From a virus, in the IMG/VR virus record IMGVR_UViG_3300033407_000001, positions 7,824 through 71,823 of that record: a DNA stretch of 64,000 bases. One strand, written 5' to 3'. The translations under genes were made by a program, and so were the position numbers. Below are positions 782 through 63,762 of this stretch, piece after piece. A model generated the notes under the pieces. It saw only the letters and a list, made by a program, of their open reading frames with translations. It searched no databases and was not told the origin of the DNA. Within the stretch, counting starts at the first letter, position 1. Every line of letters starts with the position of its first letter.

Positions 782-2803
782 CTAATTTCGAGAGGTGGCT
801 TTTCGGACTCTTTTAGCAGGTTCTGCTGGTCCGATTGTTTCCTGGAAAATCCAATCATATTTAGTATTTACAGCCAATGATGGGATGCCTGACTTCCTCG
901 GGTCACCTGGGGTCTCGAAATCGGGTGGGGTTCCTCCGCCGCTGCGGCAGAGGTTGATAGCAGCATTCGCATCCTGGTCCCAGAAGGCACCGCAATCCGA
1001 GCACCAATGATTGATGGATAGCGCATGATCCCAATCGTTAATCACTCCACATTGATGGCACATAGCAGTTATGTGCTTAGAGTCCAGCGCTTCGAATATC
1101 GCGCCATGGTTTCCGCAGGCGTTATTGATGAGGATCCGCATTTTCCCAGGAGATGCGAGTGAGGCTTGTTTTCTGACGATTTTGCTGTTCAGCTCACCGT
1201 CGAAATTTTCCTTGGTCTTGAATTTTGCGTAATTTGTATTATCGACTACAACCTTGCCATATTCACGGGCAAGGAAGGCAGCAAATTTTCGATATGCGTC
1301 TTTCTTGCGTAGCTGGCAGCGGTACTCGATGCCGCGTGTCCTATTATATGCAGCCTTGTCCAGACTTCGCCAGGTTTCCAGTTCGCCAAACATGGCTTCA
1401 TCGCCATCGAAGCGATTTTTTCTCCAATGAAGAACGAATGACGCTAGCTTACGTTGAGATTCCCAGTTTCTAATCATACTGATGCCGCGCCATCCGGTTA
1501 GCCACTGCGGAAGGCTGTCTTGCTCTTTTTTATGACGAGACAGCCAGACCGCAAAAGACTCTTTAATCTGATTGAGTGCCAGGTCTCGCGCCGCCTGCTT
1601 TATGCACATCGTTTCCATCTTTTTGCTGTATTCACCCTCAAGGATGACTTCGCCGTGGCGACCATCGTCTCCGTACCAGTAGGCTGCGCGGATGTTATTG
1701 TCACCGACTCTTCTCCAGCCCAGATTCACTGCGACGACCCCAGGGCGCTGAACTTCTTTTGCCTTATCCTTGCTTAGAGTCAGTTGCAGGTAAAATCGGT
1801 AGGTGGTGCCTGATCTTTTCTGCACAATCTTGGCCCATTTGATTTTCACATCATCTGGGATACTCCTATGCATTGTAATGGGAAATTCCACCCATATTGG
1901 CTTCATGCGATTGGTTGGCGAAGATCCAACACGTATGCGCACCGTTGTTCGACAGTTTTTGCGCCGGAAGGCCCGGTCTGGGGTGCCATCCGGTCTATTC
2001 TTGGTCCAAGGATTGTCCTCCGGGGTCGAGAACGGTTTTGTGATCTGAAGGAATTTGCTACCACCCCATGCCTGCTCGGCGGTGATACCTTTCTGCAGTT
2101 GGACTGAGACAATACCGTCACCAGACCAATGTTTGAATTTTGGATCTTTCCTTCTCCCAGGAGCATATTGGGCCGCCCTAGCGGCTCTTTCGTTTGCCCC
2201 GTAGGTGCCCCAGCATATCTTATGCTGCTCCCTGAACTCATTGCGTATCCTTTTGATTTCCGCAGCGAGTTTCTTATTGTTGGCCGTTATCTTATCTTCA
2301 ATCTCTGGGCGCTGTTTGATTTCCTCGCGTATATCCTTTCGCTCAGAAGTAGCAACCTTCTTCTTAGCCGTAAGCTTTTTCTTGAGATCTTTTGCTCCCT
2401 TATTGGTCTTGTCGGCCTTGAGGATGGCCTTGAGTGATTTGATTTCTTCGGATAGCTCGTCGATCGTTGAATTCAACTCCTCCATGCGGAGGCTAGGGGC
2501 TTCACCTATGATTTCCCTGTATAGCTTCGTTGAGGCTCGATAGGCCTCAGTGAGCTTGTTCCGATGGTCGTGCCCCAGGCGCAGTTGATAGATGAGAGTG
2601 TGACCATTGCACAGGTCACCATCGGTGTCCTGATTACATTTTGGACAGTCGCTCTCCGGTCCCGCGAATGTCGGTCTCCCAAGGCGGAATTCAATAGTAT
2701 TTTCGACTGTTTTATGGCTTTCGATTTTGCAAATCGAACAGACCTGAATCAGTTCTTTTTTTGGATCTGGATGGTCTCCCCACCTGTGTTGATGTGTAGG
2801 CAT
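782..2803 (-). CDS. cas12m: Type V-M CRISPR effector, Cas12m-like (TnpB-derived; RuvC predicted inactive)
   Basis: RuvC-I VAVNLGWR (Asp replaced by Asn), RuvC-II VVVDNT (Asp for Glu), Zn finger CHQC...CSDC, RuvC-III DQDANAAINL, WGTY and GDGIVSVQLQ motifs, long Lys/Glu coiled-coil REC insertion. These match MmCas12m motifs as recalled (ALHLGWR, VLVDDT, GSGTIAVQLQ). Abuts the array. Confidence 0.85.
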   Translation of the reverse strand: MPTHQHRWGDHPDPKKELIQVCSICKIESHKTVENTIEFRLGRPTFAGPESDCPKCNQDTDGDLCNGHTLIYQLRLGHDHRNKLTEAYRASTKLYREIIGEAPSLRMEELNSTIDELSEEIKSLKAILKADKTNKGAKDLKKKLTAKKKVATSERKDIREEIKQRPEIEDKITANNKKLAAEIKRIRNEFREQHKICWGTYGANERAARAAQYAPGRRKDPKFKHWSGDGIVSVQLQKGITAEQAWGGSKFLQITKPFSTPEDNPWTKNRPDGTPDRAFRRKNCRTTVRIRVGSSPTNRMKPIWVEFPITMHRSIPDDVKIKWAKIVQKRSGTTYRFYLQLTLSKDKAKEVQRPGVVAVNLGWRRVGDNNIRAAYWYGDDGRHGEVILEGEYSKKMETMCIKQAARDLALNQIKESFAVWLSRHKKEQDSLPQWLTGWRGISMIRNWESQRKLASFVLHWRKNRFDGDEAMFGELETWRSLDKAAYNRTRGIEYRCQLRKKDAYRKFAAFLAREYGKVVVDNTNYAKFKTKENFDGELNSKIVRKQASLASPGKMRILINNACGNHGAIFEALDSKHITAMCHQCGVINDWDHALSINHWCSDCGAFWDQDANAAINLCRSGGGTPPDFETPGDPRKSGIPSLAVNTKYDWIFQETIGPAEPAKRVRKATSRN

Positions 2804-5130: not shown

Positions 5131-5254
5131 AGAAAATTAGCGCCGCAAAGGATTGCGTTGTAACCACCTCGTAAAGCCCGTAGATGATTGCAGCGGAGCA
5201 TATTTTCCAACCATTCGTGGTGGTTTTAGACGGCAAGGTCATGGTAACGTTCAA

Positions 5255-5290
5255 AGTGAAAAGCCTGCTTGATGGCTTAGAAATCAAGAC
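5255..5290 (+). CRISPR. Solitary variant CRISPR repeat (unit A)
   Basis: AGTGAAAAGCCTGCTTGATGGCTTAGAAATCAAGAC; last 31 nt identical to 33075-33105 (minus) and 23/31 identical to the array consensus with a compensated stem; extended -10 TGGTAACGT at 5242-5250. Confidence 0.7.
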
Positions 5291-5304
5291 CAACCCATAG
5301 TCCC

Positions 5305-5838
5305 TCACTTGGGGCTAATCATCATTGTCATGACGCGGTTTTCATACCGAGCAGCCCTCTCTAGTTTCGCTATGTCTACCAGCTCAACCATGATCTTGTC
5401 CAATATGGCCTTGCCAACCTCCGGGTGAGCGTTCTCACGTCCCCGAAATCTAACCTCAAATTGGACTTTGTTCCCTTCTTCTAGGAACTTGCGGGCATGC
5501 TTGGATTTGAAGGCAATATCGTGAACGTCAGTCTTAGGTCTGAGCTTAATCTGCTTCAGCTCAACCTTGGTCTGGTTCTTTTTGGCAACGTTTTTGCGCT
5601 TTTTCTCTGCATATAAGAATTTACCGTAGTCTATGATCTTGCAGACAGGCGGCCTAACCTCTGGAGATATCTCAACTAGATCCATCTCCATCTCTTCAGC
5701 CTTAGCTAGCGCTTCGGCGATGGGCATGATCCCCTGTTGCGTACCATCCGCAAGAACAACACGTACAGAGGACACTCTGATGCTTTTGTTCATGCGTGGA
5801 CCCATTGGCTTCTTGGGTCGCCTCTCGTTACCTCTCAT
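5305..5838 (-). CDS. infC: Translation initiation factor IF-3
   Basis: MNKSIR..VRVV, DLVEISP...PPVCKIIDYGKFLY, KQIKLRPKTDVHD, FLEEGNKV..EVRFRGRE. Confidence 0.97.
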   Translation of the reverse strand: MRGNERRPKKPMGPRMNKSIRVSSVRVVLADGTQQGIMPIAEALAKAEEMEMDLVEISPEVRPPVCKIIDYGKFLYAEKKRKNVAKKNQTKVELKQIKLRPKTDVHDIAFKSKHARKFLEEGNKVQFEVRFRGRENAHPEVGKAILDKIMVELVDIAKLERAARYENRVMTMMISPK

Positions 5839-32748: not shown

Positions 32749-33019
32749 GACGCGGCTGATAGTTTCAGCTAATCGTCATCCTTTTTAGCCAGCCAGGTCT
32801 CTGGGTCAACATTATCAACGTTGATGGGAACTGGCTTAGTAGGATGTACCCAGGCGATGAGAGCGATTCAATCCGGTGAATCACTTGGCCTTCCACTCTT
32901 CAATGTGGGCTGCCCAGAGGGCTAAAATCATGTATTTCCACCACATTCGGCATGAGTACGTCGAATCGAACAGCTCTTTGATGCGGGAAATCATGGTTTT
33001 ATCTCACTTCGTTGAGAGC

Positions 33020-33184
33020 CAATTGTCAAGCTGGCCTAGGGTAGGTCGAGGGCGGAGTTGATTTTCTCTTCCTTGTCTTGATTTCTAAGCCATCAAGCAG
33101 GCTTTGCAGCTATTTATTGCTGAATGCTGCAATTGTCAAGCTGGCCTAGAGTAGGTCGATGGCGAAGTTAATTCGCTCTTCTTT
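33020..33184. repeat. Imperfect 55-bp direct repeat (33020-33074 and 33130-33184) bracketing solitary repeat unit B
   Basis: 48/55 identity at a 110-bp offset; each copy contains TTGACAATT; copy 2 encodes the recombinase C-terminus. Confidence 0.9.
33075..33110 (-). CRISPR. Solitary variant CRISPR repeat (unit B)
   Basis: GCTGCAAAGCCTGCTTGATGGCTTAGAAATCAAGAC; 33/36 identical to unit A; TTGACA (33134-33139)-N17-TAAATA directly upstream. Confidence 0.75.
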
Positions 33185-33718
33185 GAAACTCAGGTATTGG
33201 GATGTGGAGGTAATCCACTTGTGCCCAAGTGCTCCTTGGAGCTGCTTCAGATCACCATCAAGGAGGTCATGCATTCGATCGGCAAAGGTCTTGCGCATGC
33301 AGTGAGTCCCGAGAGTTCCGGTCATACCGATAGATTTAAATGCCTTATCGAAGATCCGCCACACCTGAACTCGTGATATCCTCTTGTGGGCGGTTGAGCA
33401 GAATAGAGGAGTCTCCCCCACACACCCTCCTATCTCCTCGATCCAAGCAGCAAGGGCAACCTTAGCCTTGGAGTTCAGCTTGACCGTCCTCCCCTCCCCC
33501 TTGCCTTTCATGGCAGACCGTCTTACAGAGACGGTATCGACAATTCGATCGAACTGAAATACATCAGACACATTGAGGGATAGAAGCTCACTGATGCGAA
33601 ATCCAGTCATCAAGCCGACCGTGAATAGGCAGGCATTCCTAACTCCATTGCTTCCGCAGTGGAGAGTCGCAGTAACCAATTCCGATTCCTGCTTTGTCAA
33701 TGGCCTGCATCCCTTCAT
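33146..33718 (-). CDS. Small tyrosine recombinase (catalytic domain only)
   Basis: RNACLF...TGFRISELLSL, HCMRKTF, LGHKWITSTSQY (R-H-R-H-Y catalytic set); class-B promoter. Confidence 0.92.
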   Translation of the reverse strand: MKGCRPLTKQESELVTATLHCGSNGVRNACLFTVGLMTGFRISELLSLNVSDVFQFDRIVDTVSVRRSAMKGKGEGRTVKLNSKAKVALAAWIEEIGGCVGETPLFCSTAHKRISRVQVWRIFDKAFKSIGMTGTLGTHCMRKTFADRMHDLLDGDLKQLQGALGHKWITSTSQYLSFKEERINFAIDLL

Positions 33719-44891: not shown

Positions 44892-45057
44892 ATTCAGTAA
44901 ACACCTGAGGCCCCGTACAATTTCACCTATATTTAGCAATTATCAAGGGCGCGGGTAGATGGAACTAAAAAAGAAACCTCTGAAAGATTACCTAACCCCA
45001 ATAGAAGATCAGAAGAAGAACCAAAGGAAGAAGGAAAAGCAAAACCACTGCTGTCAC

Positions 45058-45093
45058 GTCTCGTAATCAAAGCCAACGAGCAAGCTTGTTCAG
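45058..45093 (-). CRISPR. Solitary CRISPR repeat of the array type (unit C)
   Basis: Plus strand GTCTCGTAATCAAAGCCAACGAGCAAGCTTGTTCAG, 28/29 identical to array repeat 1; TTGACA (45136-45141)-N17-TGTAGT upstream; no second repeat nearby. Confidence 0.88.
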
Positions 45094-52092: not shown

Positions 52093-52362
52093 GGGTAATG
52101 TTGCTCATTATAAATGTCGGGGGAGGGTGGTTCCTCCCCCGGCGCCCCGCTTAAGCAATGGAAAACTCTAAGAGTTTTCTTTGCCGCGCAAGCGCTTGCG
52201 CTGGTACGATGTGATTCCACCGGGGCGGATAACACGCACCCATATTGATCGGCCTGCTCGCTGGCTTCGATGGCGAGACTGCCTACCTATAGAACACCTG
52301 AGCCAGAGTGAAGTTTCTGCGTTTTCGCTGAAATTCTGCGAGAGCTGAAGTGTTTATGTACC

Positions 52363-53799
52363 GTGAGCAATTCAATCACCAACAAGAACCCTTCCTTTTC
52401 TCTTTCCGACGCACCCGTGGGTGAGGTCCTATTCGACGCGGCGCGGCCAAAGCCGCTCGCACAAGAGGTCATTCCTGAGCGTGATGGCTCTTGGAATTCT
52501 CCAGGCGTTTCCGCCGAGGGCGCCGCTCGCGCCAAAGAAGACGAGCAAGCTGCTACTGCTGCGGGCTTCACCGTCGCCCCGCCGATCTACGAGATTGGCT
52601 CCCTGGTCAATCAGACCGGAGTTGAGAATTTCCGCGCATCTCGCGAGGAGTTCGAGGCAATGCCTACCGCTTTTGAGGCGTGCAGCAAGCTGGCCGCGCA
52701 AGTCCAGGCCGAGCAACGTCGCGACATCGTTATCGAAGTTCCGAATCTTCGGATGCTCGATGATGGTCGCCTTACTCGCGGCACGGGTGCCGGCATGCCC
52801 ATGAGCGAACGTGCCATGACCGGCCTGGCAACCCATGTTACCCCCGGTGGTGGTGGGTACCTTCGGGAGTGCCCTACGGAGCTTCGCGCTCTCAACGTCA
52901 ATCACTGGTGTGAGAACGGGTATCGTGAAGATGTCCGCGCGACCAATCGACTCATGCGCGAGTGGCAAGAGCAGGGCTGCTTTGATGCTCAGCCCGCCCC
53001 GGTGATTGTCCCTCGCGAGATCACTCTTCGCACCCGTATCAACGGGTCCGATGGTCGCCGCGAGAATTTCGCCGTGGTCGGCCCTCGCTACTCTGCGCAT
53101 GACATTGACGCCATTGCCAATCAGGTGATGTCCAGCGAGGCGATTCCCGCCGATGCTCGCGCCAACGTCACCTATGACGGGTACCGCTCGCGCATTGACG
53201 TGCTGTTTCACAGCAATGTCCAGCCGGAGCGAGTCGTCGCTGGCGAGATTTTCAAGGCCGGAATCATGCTGAAGACTGCCGATGATGGCAGCGGTTCGAT
53301 TCAGATTGCTGCCCAGCTATGGCGCAACCTGTGTCTCAATCTCATCATTGTGGACCACGCCAGAGACATGGTGATGCGCCGCTCGCACCGTGGCGACGGA
53401 ATCGCCGATGCTGTCAATATTGGCATCCGGGACGCCATGAAGAAGGTGGAGTATTTCTGCCAAAAATGGAGCGAGGCAACCCTGGAGAACGTCCTGGAGA
53501 AGTACGGATGCGCCGATATCGAATCCGTGTTCCGTGGACTCATCTTCAACAAGGTGGTCAACATTGGTGGCGTTGCCCCCCAGGCCATGCACGCTCGCCT
53601 GATGAGGGCATGGGAAGCTGAGCCTGGCAATGACAAGACGGCTATCGTCAATGCCATCACTCGCTCGGCTCACACCGAGACCTGGAAGCGCTGGACCATC
53701 GTTGAGGAGCTTGAGACCCTCGGCGGGGCGATGCTCTTCGCCAAAGATTGGAAGGTGTCCATCCCTGAAAAGGTGGACCTGGCCAAGCTGGGCTACTAG
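52363..53799 (+). CDS. DUF932-like protein
   Basis: FAVVGPRY, LKTADDGSGSIQI...WRNLCLN; GTG start fixed by class-B promoter. Confidence 0.65.
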   Translation: MSNSITNKNPSFSLSDAPVGEVLFDAARPKPLAQEVIPERDGSWNSPGVSAEGAARAKEDEQAATAAGFTVAPPIYEIGSLVNQTGVENFRASREEFEAMPTAFEACSKLAAQVQAEQRRDIVIEVPNLRMLDDGRLTRGTGAGMPMSERAMTGLATHVTPGGGGYLRECPTELRALNVNHWCENGYREDVRATNRLMREWQEQGCFDAQPAPVIVPREITLRTRINGSDGRRENFAVVGPRYSAHDIDAIANQVMSSEAIPADARANVTYDGYRSRIDVLFHSNVQPERVVAGEIFKAGIMLKTADDGSGSIQIAAQLWRNLCLNLIIVDHARDMVMRRSHRGDGIADAVNIGIRDAMKKVEYFCQKWSEATLENVLEKYGCADIESVFRGLIFNKVVNIGGVAPQAMHARLMRAWEAEPGNDKTAIVNAITRSAHTETWKRWTIVEELETLGGAMLFAKDWKVSIPEKVDLAKLGY

Positions 53800-53916
53800 T
53801 CCAGGCGGGACGGCGGGGGCTCAGGCCCTCGCTTTTCCTTTGGTGCCATGAGTTTTCCGATTAGATCTGCCTGCGCTTTCGCTGAAATTCCATAGGAGCT
53901 GAAGTGTTTACTAGGC

Positions 53917-54123
53917 ATGAGCAACAAACAAAAATTCATAGTCGAGGTTAGGGAGGTCCACGTCGCGACCCACGAGGTTGAGGCCATGTCTGTCGATCAG
54001 GCCATCCACCTTGTGAAGCGAGGATTCTCGGAGGCGGTCGATACTGAGTACAGCCACACGCTCCCGGAGGGGACGTGGGTTGTCACGGATGACGATGGCG
54101 CCGTCCTGAAAGATCAGGAGTAG
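53917..54123 (+). CDS. Small hypothetical protein
   Basis: Class-B promoter. Confidence 0.75.
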   Translation: MSNKQKFIVEVREVHVATHEVEAMSVDQAIHLVKRGFSEAVDTEYSHTLPEGTWVVTDDDGAVLKDQE

Positions 54124-54127
54124 GACC

Positions 54128-54298
54128 ATGAGTGACTACAGAGCAAATCGCACCGCCGCCTTGCTTGTCTTTGGTGAGCATGTCACTGAGAAGCAAATCG
54201 AGAAAGCCCTGGCGACTTTGGAGCATTTGCTGGAGCGTGAGCCACGAGTCGAGGATTACGACAATCGGTATGCCGACCCGGTCCTCTACTTCCCATAG
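54128..54298 (+). CDS. Small hypothetical protein (56 aa, not in ORF track)
   Basis: ATG 4 nt after the previous stop; followed by a hairpin and GAGTTTTCC. Confidence 0.55.
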   Translation: MSDYRANRTAALLVFGEHVTEKQIEKALATLEHLLEREPRVEDYDNRYADPVLYFP

Positions 54299-54402
54299 CA
54301 GCCCTAAGCCGAAAGGCTTGGGGCTTTGCCCTATGGGCCTGAGTTTTCCTGTATCCTCGGCGGTTCGCTGAAATTCTGCGAGAGCTGAAGTGTTTATTGG
54401 CC

Positions 54403-54564
54403 ATGAGCAAGCAAACCATCAAGACCATTTCTCGCGTCGAGGTCATTCTCGCTAAGGCTAAGGCTCCCTGTGGAACCTATCCTGGCGCGAATCGCTCGCG
54501 CAAATTCGTGGACCGCAAGCGCAAGGCAAACAAGAATGCCTGTCGCGGCAAGGTGAAATTCTAG
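54403..54564 (+). CDS. Small basic protein (53 aa, not in ORF track)
   Basis: Class-B promoter; MSKQTIK...RKRKANKNACRGKVKF. Confidence 0.7.
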   Translation: MSKQTIKTISRVEVILAKAKAPCGTYPGANRSRKFVDRKRKANKNACRGKVKF

Positions 54565-54587
54565 CGTTGCTGAGGTGTTTATAATAT

Positions 54588-54884
54588 ATGAGCAACAAAC
54601 AAAATAACCCTGCCAACCCTACCGTCGAACTCGATGGCCTGGAAGTGGAAATCACCAGAGGTGTCGATGGCGCCCTGGTGGTATCTATCTCCGGTCCTGG
54701 TGATGACGACACGACCGCGCTCGGCTCGCCGGACATCCGTGTCTGGCTGAACGATGCCCTTATCTACGCCCACGGGGAGACCGGCGATGATCTGCAATGG
54801 ACGCCACCGACCGCGCCAGATCAGATTGTCGTCAATCCAGACCCGAGGGCGATCTCAAAGAAGCATTACGGAGATGACCAATGA
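54588..54884 (+). CDS. Hypothetical protein
   Basis: Class-B promoter. Confidence 0.75.
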   Translation: MSNKQNNPANPTVELDGLEVEITRGVDGALVVSISGPGDDDTTALGSPDIRVWLNDALIYAHGETGDDLQWTPPTAPDQIVVNPDPRAISKKHYGDDQ

Positions 54885-55222
54885 GTGAGCATCGAGAGAT
54901 CAATTGTCCCATTTGTCCTGGCCCGATATGTAAGCTGGACGGGAGCGTGGCCCCTGATTACGGGGATAAGGTCTACGTCTTGACCTACACTCACAAGCAC
55001 GGTGAAGATCATGCAGTCCATATAACCTATGAAGGTGCCCTCAAGGCGGCATATGCGCTGGCCGATGAGCGTGTCGATGAGTCCTGGTGTGATTCCGAGA
55101 ACGAGGCGAAATTCAAGGGGATTGAGGATAAGACAGCAGCCCTCGCCTTTTTCCATGACATCGAGAACGAGACCAGCTACGGGGAGATACTGGAGATCTA
55201 CGAAACGCCACTGAGGGACTAG
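54881..55222 (+). CDS. Hypothetical protein
   Basis: ATGA-coupled to the upstream gene. Confidence 0.7.
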   Translation: MSEHREINCPICPGPICKLDGSVAPDYGDKVYVLTYTHKHGEDHAVHITYEGALKAAYALADERVDESWCDSENEAKFKGIEDKTAALAFFHDIENETSYGEILEIYETPLRD

Positions 55223-55325
55223 TTCCCTCGGCCCTTCGGGGCCTATGTATTGGAAAACTCTATGAGTTTTCTACTATTAGCAACAGAAAGTCGCCAAGGG
55301 AGATGATCTCCCCGGCGACTTGGCA

Positions 55326-55679
55326 CTACTGTGCGGCTTGGTTTTCGACTGCTTTCCGTGGCTTCGCGAGGCGACGCAAGCGGTCTTTCGCAGCCGAGGT
55401 GAGACGATATTGGCCGTCTCCGATCTCCTCGGGATGCTCAATCCACTTGGCTTTCACCAGGCGACGAACGGTGTTGCGAACTCGTGAATTTGCCTTGGCT
55501 TTGCCGAGGCCCTTCCATTTACATTCAACGATCAGTTCTTTGATGGTCAAGATGGGGCGGCCTGGTTTGGCGAGCGCTTTAACGATTTTCAGTTCGTTGT
55601 CGCTTAGCTCCGAGTAGTGGAGCTTCAGCTCCCCCCCTCGCTGCCCTTGCTTCGATTTCAGCTCGGTTTGTTTACTCAT
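55326..55679 (-). CDS. Winged-helix DNA-binding protein (paralogue of 56049..56750)
   Basis: SRVRNTVRRLV...IGDGQY; class-B promoter. Confidence 0.72.
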   Translation of the reverse strand: MSKQTELKSKQGQRGGELKLHYSELSDNELKIVKALAKPGRPILTIKELIVECKWKGLGKAKANSRVRNTVRRLVKAKWIEHPEEIGDGQYRLTSAAKDRLRRLAKPRKAVENQAAQ

Positions 55680-55920
55680 AATTCATAAACACCTATTGGT
55701 TCTCATAATTTCACAATCATTGAGGAATTATAAAAAGTCTAACATTATTACGGCTCTAGTCAATGCAAAGTACAGATCGAGGCTACTTTATTTTTACAGG
55801 CTCATTTAACCCACAGCCTGTGGACATAAAAAAATAGATCTCCGGTAACATTACTAGTTTGAGAAACCTTCAATGAAGTCAACGCAGTTAGATCTTTATC
55901 CACAGATACATCCACAATGC
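55680..55920. promoter_or_regulatory. AT-rich region with DnaA-box-like 9-mers (candidate origin or control region)
   Basis: TTATCCACA at 55896-55904; near-boxes at 55807, 55819 (reverse) and 55908; two TAGATCT. Confidence 0.4.
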
Positions 55921-56048
55921 CTCGTTTTTGCTGGACAAATAGGTGCCTGGATTTTGTTGACCACGATCTCTGGCTGATGCTAGGTAGGTTCTCGGGAGAT
56001 AGTCCGCCGGATACTGAAATTCTGTCGGTTCTGAGGTGTTTACTGAAC

Positions 56049-56750
56049 ATGAGCAAGCAACTGCATGTCATTGATAATGGTGTGGTATTCAACTCTGGGC
56101 AGAGGGGTAAGCCTCTCGATTTAGAGTTCAGCCAACTGAACAAGGATGAGCAGGCTGTTTTGCAGACGCTCCGCCAGTCCGGGGATCGAATGAAGATCAT
56201 ATCCATCATGGAGGCGCTCGAATGGGACATCCCAGTTGTGCCGTTCTCGCCAGAGTATTGCAAAGTCAAAGGGTATAGCAGGGTTCGCAACGCTGTGCGG
56301 CGCCTTGTTCGCTCTGGGATGATCATGCACAGTAGTGCCATTGGTGACGGAACCTATATGGTTCCCGATATCGTTCCGGTTGCTACCATTGCCCCGGTCA
56401 AGCTCTTGCCGGTTGCCAATCCCCTGCCGGTTGACATCGATAGCATCACCAAAAGGGCCATGGCGGCTGGCAGGAAGAGTGACTGTGCATTCTACAATGC
56501 CTGCCTAGATCAGGCTATCAGTAACAAATGGGATGGTTTCTCGTGCCATGGATGTAGGGCTTACGCTGAGCCCGATGAGTTCCAGAAGGAACAGAACATT
56601 CTTGGGCTTCGCGCCGTTCAGACAGCCGCAGATCTGGTGGCCAAACATGGCAAGGTCAACCGGATTCGTGGCGTGAAGCCTGGCGCAGATGCAAAGCGTA
56701 ACTCCGGCGAGATGGTGAGTCTGTCTGAAGTCATGGCGATGACGGACTAG
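56049..56750 (+). CDS. Winged-helix protein with C-terminal Cys-cluster domain
   Basis: SRVRNAVRRLV...IGDGTY; C..Y..C...SCHGC; class-B promoter. Confidence 0.75.
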   Translation: MSKQLHVIDNGVVFNSGQRGKPLDLEFSQLNKDEQAVLQTLRQSGDRMKIISIMEALEWDIPVVPFSPEYCKVKGYSRVRNAVRRLVRSGMIMHSSAIGDGTYMVPDIVPVATIAPVKLLPVANPLPVDIDSITKRAMAAGRKSDCAFYNACLDQAISNKWDGFSCHGCRAYAEPDEFQKEQNILGLRAVQTAADLVAKHGKVNRIRGVKPGADAKRNSGEMVSLSEVMAMTD

Positions 56751-57015
56751 CTACAGCTGGGGCAATCGTCCGAGCTTGAGATAGAAGATCCCGCATATCG
56801 CAACGACGAGCACTGCCCAGAGGATCTTCTTCGACTTGGTGATCTGAACATTGGGAAGATAGGCATCTATCAGGCTTCCCAGCGACCATCCAAGTAGGCC
56901 GCTGAGCAGGGATATAATGATCAGTCGAGTATCTGGATCCATAGTGGATCCTTTTACCCTTGGGGATCTGAAAACTCTATGAGTTTTCCTGTCTTGGGCC
57001 GGAGGCCGCGATGGC

Positions 57016-57270
57016 TCAGCTCTCAACGGGGGAGATGATGATTTTCACCAGGATGAGGTCAAGGTCATCAAGGTCATCTCCATAGATTTCCTCTTCTTTG
57101 CACATACCAAGGTGTTCTTTGGCTTCCTCGGGTGTGTCAAACAGATGATCGAATGGGTGCTCATATCTCATGGGATCGTCCAGGGGTATGACGTAAAGTG
57201 GTTGGCCATCGCCACAGACAAGCTGGCGATAGGCATAGTGTGTAGTTGATGGCTGTTTTGCATTGCTCAT
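57016..57270 (-). CDS. Hypothetical protein
   Basis: Class-B promoter (divergent pair). Confidence 0.75.
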   Translation of the reverse strand: MSNAKQPSTTHYAYRQLVCGDGQPLYVIPLDDPMRYEHPFDHLFDTPEEAKEHLGMCKEEEIYGDDLDDLDLILVKIIISPVES

Positions 57271-57348
57271 GGCTGGTAAACACCTCAGCTAGCCCAGAAT
57301 TTCAGTGAATTGTCTGAAATTCTATCGGCTCCCAGGTGTTTACTAAAC

Positions 57349-57984
57349 ATGAGCAATGCAATCGACAACAAGAGTATCGTCCGCGACCTTCGCAATGATA
57401 CCGTGGACGTTCAGTCCCGGCACATCGACTGGGCAGCAACACTCGGCGAAGACCTGGAGGGCTGGGAAGCCTTCGAGGCTGTTGATTGCGACGAGTGCGA
57501 CCGGGTCACGGTCCTTACAACGGCCATGGGTGGCGATGAGCATCGCTACATTGAGCCAGAGTTTGAGAATGAAGACGGCGAAGTGGTCGAGAATGAGTGC
57601 ATGGGGCATCTCTACTTTGAAGGCCCAATGATGAATAGCTTTTACCCTTGCCCCTTCAACGATACCGACGAAGCGGCACGGGCGATTGCCAGCCTTCCCC
57701 TCTGTGTGATTGTCCTGCAAGACGGCGAGACCGGCTTTGCCCTCACGGGTGGCGGCATGGACTTGAGCTGGGAGATTTGCGACGCCTACATCCGTTGCGG
57801 TTTCCTTCCCCCATTCCAGTTCTGTTGCCTACCAGACATGGCCGGCAAAGACAGGGAGAGCCGAACTCAGCTCATTCTCACAGCCTGCCAGCGCACAGCC
57901 GATGTCCGGGGGAGCCAAGCCGAGTACCGCCGCATCGAACTTAAGCAGATGGCTACCAAGTACAAGAATCCAAACGCCGCGTAA
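57349..57984 (+). CDS. MGE-type hypothetical protein (LTGGGMDLSWEI..AY motif)
   Basis: Class-B promoter. Confidence 0.8.
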   Translation: MSNAIDNKSIVRDLRNDTVDVQSRHIDWAATLGEDLEGWEAFEAVDCDECDRVTVLTTAMGGDEHRYIEPEFENEDGEVVENECMGHLYFEGPMMNSFYPCPFNDTDEAARAIASLPLCVIVLQDGETGFALTGGGMDLSWEICDAYIRCGFLPPFQFCCLPDMAGKDRESRTQLILTACQRTADVRGSQAEYRRIELKQMATKYKNPNAA

Positions 57985-58160
57985 ACGGCGAGTGGTTGCT
58001 CTAGGTGGCCGGGGAATTCTCCTCGGCCACCGTTTTTGCGTGTGCTCCGATCGGAAAACTCTATGAGTTTTCCTTGTGACAGAAAAGAACTGCCCCCCAA
58101 GGCTATGCTGAACACAACGGCCGAATTGCCACTGATTCAACCCTGGAGGGCAGAAAAGCT

Positions 58161-58580
58161 TTATGAACAGTTGACTGGACAAAAGAGGCCAGAGCTGTAG
58201 CGCCCCGACTGGTATTCCACCCGGTCTGCTGGCATGGCCACAAGTCTTTCAGGGCCATTCTCGCCGGCTATTGTGCCAATTTCAACACAATAGCCATAAT
58301 CATACTCTTTGGGAGCGCGAGTGCGCAGGAGCCCATATTTCTTAGAGTGGTCGATGACCTGCCATTTGCCACTCTTGCCACCGTCGCCAAATAGTGAGCG
58401 GAGACGTTGCTCCATCTCAAAGTAGCCTGGCGATGTCGTTGCCATCGCCTTAGAGGAGAAGGCGCCATCATATCGGCCCAGTTCGCCGATTTCTTGCAGA
58501 GCCCGTACTGTGCTCATATGAACATCAGCGCTTGCTATGAGTGCCTCCTGGTCAATTTCAAATCTGATTATTCTGAACAT
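58161..58580 (-). CDS. Hypothetical protein
   Basis: Class-B promoter; start MFRII. Confidence 0.75.
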   Translation of the reverse strand: MFRIIRFEIDQEALIASADVHMSTVRALQEIGELGRYDGAFSSKAMATTSPGYFEMEQRLRSLFGDGGKSGKWQVIDHSKKYGLLRTRAPKEYDYGYCVEIGTIAGENGPERLVAMPADRVEYQSGRYSSGLFCPVNCS

Positions 58581-58658
58581 GCATAGTAAACACTTCAGGA
58601 ATCTGAAAATTTCAGCAGATTCTTTGAAATTACACAAAGGCTGAGGTGTTTACTGGGC

Positions 58659-59024
58659 ATGGGCAATAGAGCCCACCCGAATCAACCGGCCCCGCGAGGG
58701 TGTCCGACCGAAAGTAGGTTGCTGATGTTTGTGATGGATGGGGATGTAATCCCGGTTAGTCTTGATGAGTCGATTGATCGAATCGTTGCCTTACAGAATG
58801 AGCGCAAGCTCCTGAATGCGAAGATCGACAATCTCAAAGCAGTGGCAAAGCTTCACTTGAAGAAGCTTGAGGTCACTGAGTACGAAGCGCCCTCTGGCCA
58901 CTCTGCGAAGTATTCGTCTAAGCAGATGCCAAAGTATGACAAGGAGGCAATCCTTGAGCTTACAGGTGAGGACTTCGCCCTCTGTGTGAGCTTCACGAAC
59001 GTCACAGCGTTCACGGTCAAGTAG
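58659..59024 (+). CDS. Hypothetical protein
   Basis: Class-B promoter. Confidence 0.72.
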   Translation: MGNRAHPNQPAPRGCPTESRLLMFVMDGDVIPVSLDESIDRIVALQNERKLLNAKIDNLKAVAKLHLKKLEVTEYEAPSGHSAKYSSKQMPKYDKEAILELTGEDFALCVSFTNVTAFTVK

Positions 59025-59124
59025 GCCAGTCAGGCGGGGAGAGATCCCCGCCCTCTTTGCTTGTGTGACATTGGAAAACTCAATGAGTTTTCCGACTCCC
59101 CGGCGAGGCCGAGGCCCCGAAGGG

Positions 59125-59586
59125 TTAGGCCCATACGATGAGCCTGTCACCTGCCCGCTCGCACGTTGCTAGCAATTGCTCGCAGCGCTGGCGGAGATAG
59201 CCGCCCTCGCGTCCCATGGTGATGAATCGATCCGAGTTCTCAAGGCCCATGGACTCGGCCCGCTCGTCATTGCTCATGGGAGCATCGTGGTTGCGCTCCA
59301 CGTCCCACAGACGACGGCGCAGCATTGGTGCCAGTTCTTTGGCAGGAATCTCCCCACAGTAGTCAACCGTGAGATTGAGCCAGCGCAAGAGATCGAGCGC
59401 GTTGCCATTGGCCATGTTGATCTCCGCATCGCAGATATCACACGAGTACATTTCTGGTGTGTCCTGGTCAAGCTTCCAGGCAGCATCGCAATCGTCGCAC
59501 CATCGGCGCGAGCAATCACAGGACTCAGCGGGCTCAGTGTAGCCCTTGGACTCGTTCTTGACTCCGATGAAGAATGTTATGCTCAT
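59125..59586 (-). CDS. Hypothetical Cys-rich protein
   Basis: Class-B promoter; hairpin after the stop. Confidence 0.78.
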   Translation of the reverse strand: MSITFFIGVKNESKGYTEPAESCDCSRRWCDDCDAAWKLDQDTPEMYSCDICDAEINMANGNALDLLRWLNLTVDYCGEIPAKELAPMLRRRLWDVERNHDAPMSNDERAESMGLENSDRFITMGREGGYLRQRCEQLLATCERAGDRLIVWA

Positions 59587-59664
59587 ATATTGTAAACACC
59601 TCAGCTCTTGCAGAATTTCAGCGAATAGTCTGAAATTCCAGCTGCCCTCAAGTGTTTACTAGGC

Positions 59665-60180
59665 ATGAGCACAATAACCGCACGATACGTCGATACCTGT
59701 CTGTCTGATTACCTTCAGGACAGTTACTCTCGCCCAGGCCAGGCTCTTTGCCTTGCATCTCTTGGGTGTTCCATTGAGCAGACCGTTGAGGAGTTGCTCA
59801 ATTCCCTTGATGATTCCGACAGCGGGTTCCCTGAGACCATCGGCAACGATGAGATCAAGGAGGTACTGGCCGAGGCTATTGAGGCTATCGATCTCCGTTA
59901 CATCGATGAGAACGGCAACCGATGCCAGACTCCTCCCGAGGAAGATCGTGATTGCGAGGAGCCGATGCTCTATGTCCTCATTGAGTGGGATGCCAGTGTG
60001 GTCAAGCTCCGCATGACCGTCGATGTCGAATACCAAGCGAATGGAGTGGACTCGTATGAACTCAAGCTCATGCTTGAAGATGCGATCCGCCAGGCCTCGG
60101 CCAATGGTGCTCTTACTGGCGGCACGGGTGCCACCGTAACATCATGGGGAGCGAGCGCCGAGGTAGTACCCGAGGAGTAG
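59665..60180 (+). CDS. Acidic hypothetical protein
   Basis: Class-B promoter; UUCG hairpins at 60181-60200. Confidence 0.8.
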   Translation: MSTITARYVDTCLSDYLQDSYSRPGQALCLASLGCSIEQTVEELLNSLDDSDSGFPETIGNDEIKEVLAEAIEAIDLRYIDENGNRCQTPPEEDRDCEEPMLYVLIEWDASVVKLRMTVDVEYQANGVDSYELKLMLEDAIRQASANGALTGGTGATVTSWGASAEVVPEE

Positions 60181-60200
60181 CCCTTCGGGGCTTCGGCCCC
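60181..60200 (+). terminator. Overlapping UUCG hairpins followed by the GGAAAACTC palindrome
   Basis: CCCTTCGGGG / GGGGCTTCGGCCCC; no U-tract. Confidence 0.55.
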
Positions 60201-60286
60201 CCTGGGAATTGGAAAACTCTAAGAGTTTTCCGACCTACGCAAACGCTTGCGCGGCGAGGAGTTACCCTGCCGCGCAGCCCGCCCGC

Positions 60287-60697
60287 CTATTCCTTGAGTA
60301 GCGCATTGCATTTGTCGCAATTGGCAACGAAGTGCCGATCGAGCCAGGCAACAGTTTCGCCCTGTGTCTCATTGCCGCACAGTGGCAAGCTATCGTTGTC
60401 CATGTCGGGTATATGGCGCGGAGCGTCATATACTTCGACTCGGAAATAGCCCTCGGGGTCAATCCAAACGTCAACAGGGCTGGAGAGTGTCCCGCAGGTA
60501 TCTGTTTCCTCAATTTTCTCAAGCACGGTTTCGGCAGTCAAGAATTGAGGTTCACACCCGAACACCTCACGGGCTAGCTCGGCGTAGCGTTCTTCAGGCA
60601 TGGCGTTGATCGCCTGCTCGACCGTGAATGGTCGTTCCTGGCTGAACTCGTCGTCGGAGATGAAGAATTCGGGGCTGAATGATAGTGAGTAGCTCAT
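60287..60697 (-). CDS. Hypothetical protein
   Basis: Class-B promoter. Confidence 0.78.
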   Translation of the reverse strand: MSYSLSFSPEFFISDDEFSQERPFTVEQAINAMPEERYAELAREVFGCEPQFLTAETVLEKIEETDTCGTLSSPVDVWIDPEGYFRVEVYDAPRHIPDMDNDSLPLCGNETQGETVAWLDRHFVANCDKCNALLKE

Positions 60698-60818
60698 ATA
60701 TAGTAAACACTTCAGGACTTACGGAATTTCAGTAAAAGATCAGCAAACGCAGTGCTTTATGAGTTTTCCAATTCGGAACGCAAAAACCGCCCCGAAGGGC
60801 GGCGCGGTCTGGCTCCTG

Positions 60819-61034
60819 CTATGCTGGGAGTAGCAGATGGCCCTGTTTGCGAATCTTCCCAGCTTCCACCAGGGTTCCGACGATGGTATTGAACTGCTCA
60901 AGAGAGCATCCGATGCCCATGAGAGTCGCGTACAGATGGCCGGCTGGTAGGCCCTGCTCGCCCAATTCCTCGACTGTTTCAACAATTGCCGAGGCGATTG
61001 CCATGAGTGCTTTGATTGCTTGTGTGTTGCTCAT
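60819..61034 (-). CDS. Small winged-helix-like protein
   Basis: G.LYATLMG..CSLEQFNTIVGTLVEAGKI; class-B promoter. Confidence 0.7.
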   Translation of the reverse strand: MSNTQAIKALMAIASAIVETVEELGEQGLPAGHLYATLMGIGCSLEQFNTIVGTLVEAGKIRKQGHLLLPA

Positions 61035-61112
61035 ATTATGTAAACACTTGGGGACTGATAGAATTTCAGCGAAAAGAGTGAAATTCTAGCCTGGCTGGCG
61101 TGTTTATTAACC

Positions 61113-61697
61113 ATGAGCAAAACCACCAAAACCATCCGAATCCGCCTCGATGATGATGCTGAGTCGCCGCGTGAATATGCCGGCGAATTCAGCACCATGG
61201 CTTGCTGGCACAACCGTTACAACCTTGGCGACGTACAGCCCCGCGAAGAGCCGCAAGAATGGCTCAAGGAGAATGCGCCCAAGGGCTCCGTGGTTCTTTG
61301 CCTGTATCTCTACGATCACAGCGGAATTACCATGAGCACTGGCCCGTTTTCTTGCGGCTGGGATTCTGGCCCTGTTGGCTACATTGTGTCAACGCCAGAG
61401 CAGATTCGCGCAACCTTTATGGTCAAGCGTATCACCAAAAAGATTCGTGAGCAGGTCACGAAGAATCTCGAAAATGAGGTCAAGGTTTACGCGGAATATC
61501 TCGAAGGCAATGTCTATGGTTTTGAAATCATTGAGACAACCGAGTGTGACTCATGCCAACACGGGGAGCCAGAAGTGATTGACTCGTGTTGGGGATTCAT
61601 TGGCAACGATTGGGCGCTTGAAGCTATGGCCGACCATATCGACCCGGAGCTTCGCCCTCAGCTTGAGCAGGCTTGGGAAAATAGGTTCGACGGCTAG
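61113..61697 (+). CDS. Conserved phage hypothetical protein (SPRE...H.RY.LGD; YLYDHSG...WDSG motifs)
   Basis: Class-B promoter. Confidence 0.82.
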   Translation: MSKTTKTIRIRLDDDAESPREYAGEFSTMACWHNRYNLGDVQPREEPQEWLKENAPKGSVVLCLYLYDHSGITMSTGPFSCGWDSGPVGYIVSTPEQIRATFMVKRITKKIREQVTKNLENEVKVYAEYLEGNVYGFEIIETTECDSCQHGEPEVIDSCWGFIGNDWALEAMADHIDPELRPQLEQAWENRFDG

Positions 61698-61791
61698 GCC
61701 CTTCGGGGCTGCGGCCCCAGGTCGCCTGAGTTTTCCTGTAAGAGAATGAGATCTCAGTGAAATTCCACAAGAGCTGAGGTGTTTACTAGAT

Positions 61792-62097
61792 ATGAGCAAC
61801 ACCGACGAACAGCAAGAAACAATCGAAGAAGAGGCACGCCAGATCATGGTGGAGATCCTCTATCATCACTTCGGCGATGATTTCATTACATCGGATCGCG
61901 TTGACGGTTCAGTCTGCGGCGGAGATCCGCACGGATGGACTCAGGGCGCGGTGGCAACAATTCTCACTGAGAGCTGCTTGCCAGATCCGGTCTATGGTCC
62001 TGTTGAGGCATGGTGCCGAGTATTCGAGGATGCTGCCGAGCGTGGCCTACACTGCGAGCCAATCAATGGGGCGGTGATCGGAGTCTACCCCCTCTAA
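61792..62097 (+). CDS. Hypothetical protein
   Basis: Class-B promoter. Confidence 0.78.
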   Translation: MSNTDEQQETIEEEARQIMVEILYHHFGDDFITSDRVDGSVCGGDPHGWTQGAVATILTESCLPDPVYGPVEAWCRVFEDAAERGLHCEPINGAVIGVYPL

Positions 62098-62189
62098 GGG
62101 AAGGGGCTTCGGCCCTGTTTGCCCTGAGTTTTCCTTGAACTTATTGATTCACAGCTGAAATTCTAGCGCTTCTGAAGTGTTTACTAGAT

Positions 62190-62435
62190 ATGAGCAACAC
62201 CGGAAATCAATTCAGACTTATCGATCGTGGCAGCGGAGCATGGTCCGCTATCCTGAAGCGTAAGGCTGGAAGCCTTGCCGTACGGGTCATCACCGAACAG
62301 GGTGGCTATCGCATCGACTTTACCAAGAGCGTCGGCGCGGCTTGGCAACCCTGGGAGCCTATCGCGACCACTGTCTTTTCTACCTTCGACGAAGCCGAGA
62401 AGGCTCTACGAAGTTCTGTTACCGGGCTCCTGTAA
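62190..62435 (+). CDS. Hypothetical protein
   Basis: Class-B promoter; UUCG hairpin at 62440. Confidence 0.75.
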   Translation: MSNTGNQFRLIDRGSGAWSAILKRKAGSLAVRVITEQGGYRIDFTKSVGAAWQPWEPIATTVFSTFDEAEKALRSSVTGLL

Positions 62436-62576
62436 CTGCAGGGGCTTCGGCCCTTGTGCGAATTGGAAAACTCTATAAGTTTTCCTGCCTGCACAGTAAA
62501 AAGAGCGAGGGGATTGGACTTTGTACACTCGGGCCGGAGCCACTCGGACATAGTACACACACCCCTCACTCAAAAC

Positions 62577-62777
62577 CTACTCGGCGGCAGCTTGCTCCTC
62601 TTCGCGGTCCCGGCACAATTCCTCGAATTGCTCTTCGGTGTATTTGAACTGCGAGCAGAGGTCGCGCAAGTCCTGGTCATCTTCACAGATGAGAAGGTCT
62701 CGGTAAAGGTGCTCAGTATTGAGGACATGGAGGCTCAGCTCTTGTTCCCCGTACATTGTGATGTCTATCTTGCTCAT
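62577..62777 (-). CDS. Small acidic protein
   Basis: Class-B promoter (divergent pair). Confidence 0.75.
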   Translation of the reverse strand: MSKIDITMYGEQELSLHVLNTEHLYRDLLICEDDQDLRDLCSQFKYTEEQFEELCRDREEEQAAAE

Positions 62778-62855
62778 ATTCAGTAAACACCTCAGCTCGC
62801 CTAGAATTTCAGCGAATTGTCTGAAATTCTATCGGCTCCCAGGTGTTTACTAGAT

Positions 62856-63680
62856 ATGAGCAACACAAAACAATTTGGTGAGTCCGGTGTCTGGCGCGGC
62901 TGGGTTGAACTCGGCGGCGATATCAACTGGGAGGAGCATGGCGGCAAGTGGTGTCGCAAAGATCCGAATCTTTCTCGCGTGTTCTACGTGATTGAGCATA
63001 TGAATCTCGTTGAGTGCATGGGCGAGCGCGATGTCGAGGCCGGCGGCCTTGATAAATACGTGAGTAGCATCTCACGGATCGATCTCGATGAGATCCCGGA
63101 GTCTGAAGTGGAATCCGCGCTTGAGTCATGCGGCATCGAACTCGCCAACTATGACAGCGACGAGACTGATCTTGTTGTCGTTGAAGCTCTCACGGGCTAC
63201 GGATGCGCGGCCCCCATGGGAGAGTATTCAGATCCATCCTATCCCGAGCGGTCACGGGCGGCAGCAAGGCGCGAAGTCGAGGAGCTTATCGCCGATTCCG
63301 TCAAGTGCGAGGATATGCTTGACCGGCCAGTGAATGCCATCGGTTCCACGGCCAGGGACTTCGGCCAGGGTAACATCATGGCGGGGCTTGACCGATACAA
63401 GGTGGAGCAAGAGACAAGGGCTCTGAAGGTCCGACTCAAGAGGGTTCCCAGCGATGACCCGATTGCATTCGCTCATGGATTCCAGACGGGTTGCGCTGGC
63501 GGTGCATTCCCCGCCGATGAGAGTGACCTGGCCCCAGAATGGCTCAGAGGGCATGAGCTTGGGCTTAAGGTCCGCAACGGTGACGAGGACATTCGCGAGC
63601 TGAATCACTGGGTAGAGCCGGATACGAGCAACACCTCCATGGATCTCATGGTCAAGCTGCAAAGCGCGGCAAGAAACTAA
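62856..63680 (+). CDS. Acidic hypothetical protein
   Basis: Class-B promoter. Confidence 0.8.
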   Translation: MSNTKQFGESGVWRGWVELGGDINWEEHGGKWCRKDPNLSRVFYVIEHMNLVECMGERDVEAGGLDKYVSSISRIDLDEIPESEVESALESCGIELANYDSDETDLVVVEALTGYGCAAPMGEYSDPSYPERSRAAARREVEELIADSVKCEDMLDRPVNAIGSTARDFGQGNIMAGLDRYKVEQETRALKVRLKRVPSDDPIAFAHGFQTGCAGGAFPADESDLAPEWLRGHELGLKVRNGDEDIRELNHWVEPDTSNTSMDLMVKLQSAARN

Positions 63681-63685
63681 ACACT

Positions 63686-63720
63686 CGGCGGGGGTCGGAA
63701 TTGCCGGCCCCCGCCGTTTT
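63686..63720 (+). terminator. Intrinsic terminator, possibly bidirectional
   Basis: CGGCGGGGGTCGG-AATTG-CCGGCCCCCGCCG-TTTT between convergent genes. Confidence 0.75.
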
Positions 63721-63762
63721 GCTGTACAGAATAGGAAAACTCTAAGAGTTTTCCTTCCCGCG

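Follow-up and report, generated by a model that had tools for sequence, protein, structure and literature searches.

A solitary CRISPR repeat inserted at the end of a phage recombinase gene as a candidate guide unit for the phage's own Cas12m

The DNA analysed here (64,000 nt, referred to as the window) spans positions 7824-71823 of IMG/VR record IMGVR_UViG_3300033407_000001, a virus sequence of 199.6 kb that comes from a soil metagenome. The phage encodes a Cas12m-like effector and a CRISPR array, and it also carries solitary repeats scattered in its genome. One of these, termed unit B, lies on the minus strand at the end of a recombinase gene and is the subject of this study.

The recombinase gene (33146-33718, minus strand) encodes a tyrosine recombinase of 190 aa that consists of the catalytic domain only (Pfam Phage_integrase, E=1.1e-23). 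On the minus strand, a TTC codon for Phe (33187-33185), which is also present in the related phage contigs L016, L017, L018-L023, L118 and L120-122, is directly followed by R1 (33130-33184), the resident copy and potential self-protospacer. R1 contains the last 12 recombinase codons (KEERINFAIDLL), the stop codon TAG (33148-33146), GCCAGC and TTGACAATTG. Next come 19 nt of orphan DNA (33111-33129) with no match elsewhere, in which a -10-like TAAATA (33116-33111) begins exactly 17 nt after the TTGACA of R1 (33139-33134), and then a 36-nt variant CRISPR repeat (33075-33110) that was recognized by repeat search and covariation. The 3' end of the repeat abuts R2 (33020-33074), a displaced copy of ancestral type that would read KEEKINSALDLP, TAG, GCCAGC and TTGACAATTG. 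R2 therefore occupies the spacer position, with 33074-33039 as a guide of spacer length and 33074-33058 as the 17 nt expected to pair. The TTGACA of R2 (33029-33024) is the -35 element of the next gene's promoter. That promoter (TTGACA-N17-TGAGAT) is predicted to drive a downstream open reading frame (ORF) of 37 aa (MISRIKEL..WWKY.., 32881-32994, minus strand), which has a homologue in L016/L017 and is probably also transcribed by read-through from unit B.

R1 and R2, which flank the orphan DNA and the repeat, thus form an imperfect direct repeat of 55 nt with 48/55 identical positions and a period of 110; a repeat search returned it as a 56-nt direct repeat with 88% identity and a spacing of 110. 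The mismatches fall at guide positions 3, 10, 11, 15, 20, 25 and 35, so that the two copies agree fully over their last 20 nt. A first-pass annotation of the window had described the order TTGACA-N17-TAAATA, variant repeat and guide, the TTC-flanked homologous site 110 bp upstream in the last codons of the recombinase, five mismatches in the first 20 nt, and homology that starts at the repeat end and runs for 55 bp through a duplicated promoter. Direct reading of the strand confirmed all of these, with an uncertainty of 1 nt in either direction at the start of the homology, because a C is common to both sequences. The same annotation called the changes mostly synonymous or conservative, which was overstated: among the six codons that differ, two changes are synonymous and two conservative (R/K and I/L), but the other two are radical (F/S and L/P). 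The -35 element of unit B is perfect and belongs to a recurrent TTGACAATTG promoter family of the phage (family D12). From TTGACA-N17-TAAATA, the transcription start is predicted at about 33105-33103, and an RNA beginning about 7 nt past TAAATA would contain exactly a scaffold like the ordered one of Cas12m2.

The variant repeat is predicted to fold into a hairpin of 6 bp (CUUGAU/AUCAAG) and a pseudoknot of 4 bp (AGCC/GGCU), with GAC as its 3' end. Over 14 array and solitary repeats, 98.6% of the cells were paired with compensatory changes at three pairs, and pairing as good was found in 0/500 shuffles. The conserved core of 29-31 nt corresponds to the ordered part of the Cas12m2 scaffold, in which the first 7 of the 36 repeat nucleotides are disordered (PMC10442227); indeed, the architecture of that scaffold parallels the fold of the phage repeats. 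In the window the 36-nt variant repeat has a single other copy, with 3 mismatches, where shuffles gave an expectation of 0. Five solitary repeats (units A to E) were found in the genome. Units A (5255-5290, plus strand), B and E (outside the window, L013:1504-1539 on the minus strand, genome C1:126481-126516) have one common variant repeat, unit C (45057-45092, minus strand) has an array-type repeat, and unit D (52244-52279, plus strand), which was missing from the first-pass annotation, is of a third type with the stem CTCGCT/GGCGAG. The variant repeats are near-identical to each other and distinct from every array repeat, and the phage holds a graded series that runs from the array repeat with GCCTG through unit D to units A, B and E. 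Exact searches with the variant repeat returned no match in IMG/VR or in the metagenome contigs of JGI, and the orphan DNA that precedes the repeat in each of units A, B and E had no matches.

The effector gene (782-2803, minus strand) is present in a single copy in the whole record and encodes 673 aa. The protein matched Cas12m in the PDB (23vw, E=9e-56), Cas12m2 (8hio, E=2e-30) and also 8pm4, and it contains a TNB domain (PF07282). Its residues aligned with the RuvC triad of Cas12m2 (H317/D485/D579) are N, D and D. Since Cas12m enzymes with non-canonical triads bind DNA without cutting it (PMC10442227, PMC11013384), the phage Cas12m is probably a binder rather than a cutter. The array lies downstream of cas12m, with its leader-proximal part at 1-740 on the minus strand and 1.7 kb more beyond the start of the window. 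It has about 36 repeats in total, and its spacers are 31-41 nt long, mostly 35-37. No cas1, cas2 or cas4 was seen in the 64-kb window. The array spacers matched neither the phage itself nor the fetched relatives nor five related virus records, and a phage reference collection held no DNA similar to the array or to the unit B locus. Two related phages of 197 kb and 145 kb have neither Cas12m nor the repeats. Genes for a deaminase and a peptidase lie upstream of cas12m.

Many large-phage contigs encode homologues of the recombinase, with identities of 37-93%. Nearest to it are those of L016 (93% at the amino acid level, 83% at the nucleotide level), L017 (92%), L118 and L120-122 (about 86%) and L018-L023 (70-78%); that of L001 (69%) was also compared. 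In the relatives, the gene ends in ...SFKEE(K/R)IN.A.D.L-stop and is followed by a promoter or a small ORF, and then by TTGACA-N17-TGAGAT and the small WWKY ORF. The repeat of unit B is absent from all close relatives, indicating a lineage-specific insertion. Compared with them, the window has 110 bp extra, placed exactly between TTC and AAG (TTC|AAG), where 12 codons of the recombinase remain to its stop. Since the 55 bp holding the gene end, the stop codon and the -35 element are present twice, the recombinase is intact via R1 and the promoter of the next gene is kept via R2. We also observed that L016 (3570-3830), L017 and L118 (833-1075) have an ORF of 70-80 aa between the recombinase and the WWKY ORF, which is lost in the window (33020-33145), and that the R2 promoter of the window resembles the second promoter of the relatives (…CGAAGTGAGAT…) fused to the recombinase stop.

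Comparison with the relatives also gave a direction to the differences between the two copies. R1 and R2 have in common several states that differ from L016/L017 (A12, C18, the codon CTA, and GCCAGC and its spacing), so that they are sister copies made within this lineage. When L016 and L017 were used as outgroups, five changes fell on R1 (3, 10, 11, 15 and 20), one fell on R2 (35) and one was ambiguous (25); the polarity of position 3 is less certain, because the clade with about 86% identity also has A there. It appears that the non-coding R2 kept the ancestral sequence while the coding R1 changed. L016 and L017 are 12% apart overall and are identical in the first 20 nt of the site. From these, R1 differs by 7 substitutions in the first 20 nt, two of which are also found in R2, and this is the densest 20-nt window of window-specific substitutions in the recombinase gene (top 0.5%). 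An import of R1 from a distant lineage was considered and rejected, as R1 and R2 have derived states in common and R1 matches no sampled lineage.

Cas12m2 forms a heteroduplex of 17 bp and requires a 5'-TTN protospacer-adjacent motif (PAM) (PMC10442227). By this yardstick, the guide of unit B (guide B) fits the relatives better than its own genome. Behind TTC, its first 17 nt match L016 and L017 at 16/17 positions (mismatch at 12), L118 at 16/17 (mismatch at 3), and L120-122 and L018/19 at 15/17 (in L120, with mismatches at 3 and 9). Against its own R1, the match is 13/17, with mismatches at 3, 10, 11 and 15. Over the spacer length, the values are 30/36 for the relatives and 29/36 for R1. Guide B has no other near-match in its own genome, so that R1 in the recombinase gene is the only partial self-match.

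The first-pass annotation suggested that a mismatched guide might tune expression of the recombinase. In this reading, Cas12m would be led weakly to R1 and would adjust either transcription of the recombinase gene or the read-through that reaches unit B and the genes behind it. R1 does stand behind TTC, a putative PAM, and lies on the same molecule, 110 bp away. The guide is complementary to the recombinase template strand, and dCas12a blocks elongation when it is bound in this orientation. The mismatches at 3, 10, 11 and 15, on the other hand, lie in the zone where Cas12 enzymes tolerate them least, the derived changes are on the target and lead away from the guide, which looks like avoidance rather than tuning, and a block with only 12 codons left to the stop would come too late in the gene for good control. 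We therefore hold autoregulation to be improbable.

We propose instead that unit B may be a working single-repeat Cas12m guide against sister phages in which this site is uninterrupted. From the sequence comparisons, we judge this proposal to stand about an even chance of being correct. In this reading, promoter, repeat and guide would make unit B a self-contained cassette of the type V-M (Cas12m) system that the phage encodes. Transcription from TTGACA-N17-TAAATA would start about 29-31 nt before the repeat end, and the resulting RNA would comprise a complete Cas12m scaffold and the guide with no processing needed. The N-D-D Cas12m would be loaded with this RNA and led to the TTC-flanked recombinase ends of co-infecting sister phages without the insertion, where the bound protein, held on the template strand within the last 12 codons, would act as a roadblock shortly upstream of the sister's next promoter. 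The phage's own copy R1 would be spared by the four mismatches in the 17-nt pairing zone, having drifted, or having been selected, out of the guide's reach. The outcome would be heterotypic superinfection exclusion aimed at the 'empty-site' allele.

Unit A is an independent replicate of the pattern of insertion at TTC. It comprises the repeat at 5255-5290 and a guide-position sequence at 5291-5326 (5255-5326 in all, plus strand), antisense to the end of infC, and it lies within the opening codons of a small, conserved and membrane-like ORF (MGWKIF...). Compared with the infC relatives L126 and L129 (86% aa identity), unit A is an insertion of 83 nt (5208-5290), flanked by a duplication of about 9 nt (ATGGGTTGG/AATGGTTGG), which brings a new in-frame ATG (MTLPSKTTTNGWKI...). 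The empty site of the relatives again stands behind TTC, and the guide matches it at 16/17 positions in L126 and 15/17 in L129. With TTC at 1.9% and TTN at 6% of genome positions, two such junctions by chance have a p of about 3.5e-4 (TTC) or 3.5e-3 (TTN). Unit A has no PAM-flanked self target in the genome, which is a further argument against autoregulation. Both cassettes sit precisely where the PAM would touch the protospacer, with the duplicated target keeping the interrupted gene working.

The comparison of the two duplications also bears on an excisable 110-bp switch, another idea of the first-pass annotation, in which R1 and R2 recombine, so that the guide is lost and the recombinase acquires the KEEKINSALDLP tail. 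At a length of 55 nt and 87% identity, such direct repeats could recombine, and a small tyrosine recombinase of FimB size is encoded next door. The duplication at unit A, however, is merely 9 nt, a long flanking duplication exists at unit B alone, and the duplication thus looks like a by-product of insertion rather than a designed site. Furthermore, a deletion between direct repeats cannot be reversed and hence does not make a switch, inverted or dif-like sites are absent, and none of the relatives has the tail ending in P. A junction of R1 with R2 was seen in no contig of the source run, which is weak evidence, since the Logan de Bruijn contigs break at the multi-copy repeat; the 110-bp deletion, which the first-pass annotation had suggested looking for, was neither shown nor excluded by them. 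Taken together, we regard the switch as extremely improbable.

Several observations weigh against the proposal that unit B guides Cas12m to sister phages. As for its expression, a consensus promoter scan called no sigma-70 promoter at unit B, because TAAATA lacks the final T, so that the promoter noted in the first-pass annotation combines a perfect -35 element and N17 spacing with a weak, non-canonical -10 element. No second repeat occurs within 300 nt of the unit B repeat, and the unit is not bounded on both sides; neither a terminator nor a second repeat marks the 3' end of the guide. Among public runs, no RNA run holding the locus was found, the sole run with the locus being the probable source soil metagenome, as contigs. 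As for its target, no perfect protospacer was found in IMG/VR, the metagenomes of JGI or the fetched relatives, and an exact search with the first 24 nt of the guide returned nothing from IMG/VR or the JGI metagenome contigs. Related phage recombinase genes were thus searched for a perfect match, as the first-pass annotation had suggested, and none was found; the idea in that annotation of a guide against related phages nevertheless fits best, with TTC and 15-16/17 matches in relatives. The best targets carry one or two mismatches, one of them at position 3. The 5'-TTN yardstick is the PAM of Cas12m2, that of other Cas12m enzymes is T/C-rich, and this ortholog may differ in its PAM, its mismatch tolerance and its acceptance of the variant repeat. 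A target was identified for none of the roughly 36 spacers of the array, which leaves a habit of targeting relatives unsupported. The rate asymmetry between the copies depends on the outgroup, with relative-rate counts of 6:1 (L016), 5:2 (L017) and 3:2 (L118) that are non-significant alone, and the identity of the last 20 nt of R1 and R2 is also explained by promoter constraint.

The junction position, the rate asymmetry and the mismatch distribution are each marginal (p about 0.03-0.1); the statistics rest on 7 differences and 2 loci, and they would leave room for a neutral local duplication that resembles a CRISPR unit by chance and has no biological role. We nevertheless consider such a duplication very improbable. 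The repeat unquestionably belongs to the CRISPR repeat family of the phage, the DNA between R1 and R2 (U) is not duplicated, which does not fit a tandem duplication, comparison with the relatives points to an insertion and not to a tandem array, and the same TTC junction recurs at unit A. Thus, the neutral tandem duplication that the first-pass annotation gave as the alternative to a guide has been weakened.

A weightier alternative is that the variant repeats are scars. They would have come by spacer-protospacer recombination with a foreign type V-M array of a host or rival whose target was this phage lineage. They would now be inert, or would serve as a repeat-mimicking decoy RNA for a host Cas12m without guiding anything, and the changes in R1 would be escape mutations against a foreign spacer. 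Recombination with a targeting array puts the repeat automatically at the PAM|protospacer junction, and this alternative therefore explains the exact junction, the PAM, and the TTC in the empty-site relatives of units A and B equally well. It further explains why the homology runs past the spacer length, why the flanking duplications are unequal (9 and 55 nt), and why the variant repeats are near-identical to one another and unlike every array repeat. Recombination has been proposed as the source of viral mini-array spacers (PMC6858448), and solitary promoter-borne phage repeats are known as RNA anti-CRISPRs (PMC10651486). However, a search of 185,579 species genomes with a looser stem-loop pattern found no variant-repeat array; it returned 10 isolated matches, about the number expected by chance, none of them in an array or with the conserved 5' part. 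The graded repeat series inside the phage fits a repeat family of its own, and the phage encodes the matching effector. R2 is nearer to the ancestral sequence than the coding copy is, which is unexpected of inert DNA, and the orphan 19 nt put a -10-like box exactly 17 nt from the duplicated -35 element. On balance, we consider a scar or decoy rather unlikely, though it is the main and a serious rival of a guide.

Beyond unit B, we tentatively suggest a wider scheme, which we consider possible but doubtful. The phage may place repeat cassettes in its own genome precisely at PAM|protospacer junctions, whether through recombination of spacer and protospacer or by some other route that is independent of Cas1/2, with the target duplicated just enough for the neighbouring genes, so that the resident sequence would become a guide against relatives with the uninterrupted site. 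The carrier would be protected by the insertion itself (unit A) or by point mutations (unit B), and the result would be an allele-specific, drive-like 'empty-site exclusion' by a non-cutting Cas12m. If this is true, the phage competes with near-identical phages by means of its own non-cutting effector and dispersed single-repeat guides, and new guides arise without spacer acquisition, through insertion of a repeat beside a PAM in a resident gene. The locus also offers a natural graded set of targets (its own copy and three sister alleles) for the mismatch tolerance of Cas12m.

Among the closest known parallels are the mini-CRISPR arrays of SPV1 and SPV2 in interviral conflict, whose spacers match adjacent genes of close relatives while the carrier locus is mutated, the proximity being unexplained (Medvedeva et al. 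2019, PMC6858448); phage mini-arrays are cited in the same paper (Faure et al. 2019, as cited in PMC6858448). As in those arrays, guide B adjoins the orthologue of its own putative target and matches, though imperfectly, a gene of close relatives, a predicted promoter lies directly upstream, and the carrier's R1 bears derived point mutations (3, 10, 11, 15 and 20) that would prevent self-targeting. Unlike them, unit B is one repeat with no closing repeat, the phage is predicted to supply its own non-cutting Cas12m in place of host Cas proteins, and its 'spacer', with no 100% target found, duplicates the adjacent end of the resident gene. The homology extends 20 nt past the spacer length into the promoter, which argues against acquisition by Cas1-Cas2 and points to the origin of the spacer-target proximity: the 'spacer' is the resident sequence itself. 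If true, the wider scheme would also explain why spacers of viral mini-arrays target array-adjacent genes, and it would answer the point left open in that literature, why the spacers and the targets in relatives occupy neighbouring positions. What we regard as new here is that the logic of viral mini-arrays and solitary repeats would be combined with a phage's own Cas12m and a single covaried repeat, and that the guide would come from insertion and duplication rather than from adaptation.

Unit B also resembles Racr, solitary repeat units that act as RNA anti-CRISPRs (Camara-Wilpert et al. 2023, PMC10651486), in being a solitary intergenic phage repeat with conserved repeat structure just behind a promoter with a perfect -35 and a weak -10 element. 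Racr mimics the host repeat and needs no target, whereas this phage has a cognate Cas12m and an array of about 36 repeats, and units A and B adjoin sequences whose counterparts in relatives are candidate protospacers behind a putative PAM. As a roadblock, type V-M Cas12m impedes transcription or replication (Wu et al. 2022; Omura et al. 2023, PMC10442227; Bigelyte et al. 2024, PMC11013384). The phage system shares with it a compact Cas12m with a non-canonical RuvC triad, from which binding is expected over cutting, a 36-nt repeat with a hairpin, a pseudoknot and about 29 structured nucleotides, and perhaps a T-rich 5' PAM. The characterised V-M systems are plasmid-borne or chromosomal, with ordinary arrays and an HDD or DED triad, while the one described here is on a 200-kb phage, with dispersed single-repeat units, a covaried repeat variant and the triad N-D-D. 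Standalone repeat-like elements with a partially matching guide for the resident effector are known as tracr-L and CreR, cr-like regulatory RNAs with partial spacers, which mediate autoregulation through cas promoters as their targets (Shmakov et al. 2023, bioRxiv 10.1101/2023.03.03.530964). Unlike theirs, the partial match of unit B is in the coding end of the recombinase gene, 30 kb from cas12m, and there is no match to a cas promoter.

A variant-repeat guide that lies apart from the main array, has a dedicated task for a mobile element and tolerates imperfect matches is also a feature of CRISPR-associated transposons (CASTs): Petassi in 2020 and Saito in 2021 reportedly described atypical-repeat or delocalised homing guides in I-F3 and V-K CASTs (both cited in PMC11656645). 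In contrast to CASTs, no transposase is present, the target would be the end of a competitor's gene rather than an attachment site, and the link to the recombinase is positional only.

Units D and E differ from A and B in their surroundings. Unit D replaces a terminator hairpin that is seen in the relative L130; L130 has TTT at the PAM position, within the T-run of the terminator, and indels break the match, so that this junction is a weak test of the insertion pattern. The repeat of unit E stands directly 5' of a circularly permuted tRNA-like gene, and pairing is possible between a stretch immediately 3' of that gene and the 3' half of the repeat with the 9 nt that follow it. Here the repeat may belong to a structured RNA or mark a site for its processing.

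The record itself may be incomplete: a contig of 286,833 nt carries proteins identical to the recombinase, the IF3 and a 478-aa protein of the window, so that the phage genome may exceed 199.6 kb. The phage encodes its own IF3 (5305-5838, minus strand), whose nearest cellular homologues are from Myxococcota (Kofleriaceae and Nannocystaceae), a hint to the host. At about 35 sites between 17571 and 63967 of the window, on both strands, the element CTGAAATTC-N9-CTGAGGTGTTTAC-N5-ATGAGCAAC lies directly 5' of start codons, and many of the products behind it begin with MSN; it may be a phage-specific promoter or translation-initiation signal. The sequence 3' of unit D is a degenerate copy of this element in reverse orientation. 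Between gene cassettes, recurrent GGAAAACTCTAAGAGTTTTCC hairpins (52148-63754) and GCGCAAGCGCTTGCGC palindromes (9746-60258) were also found.

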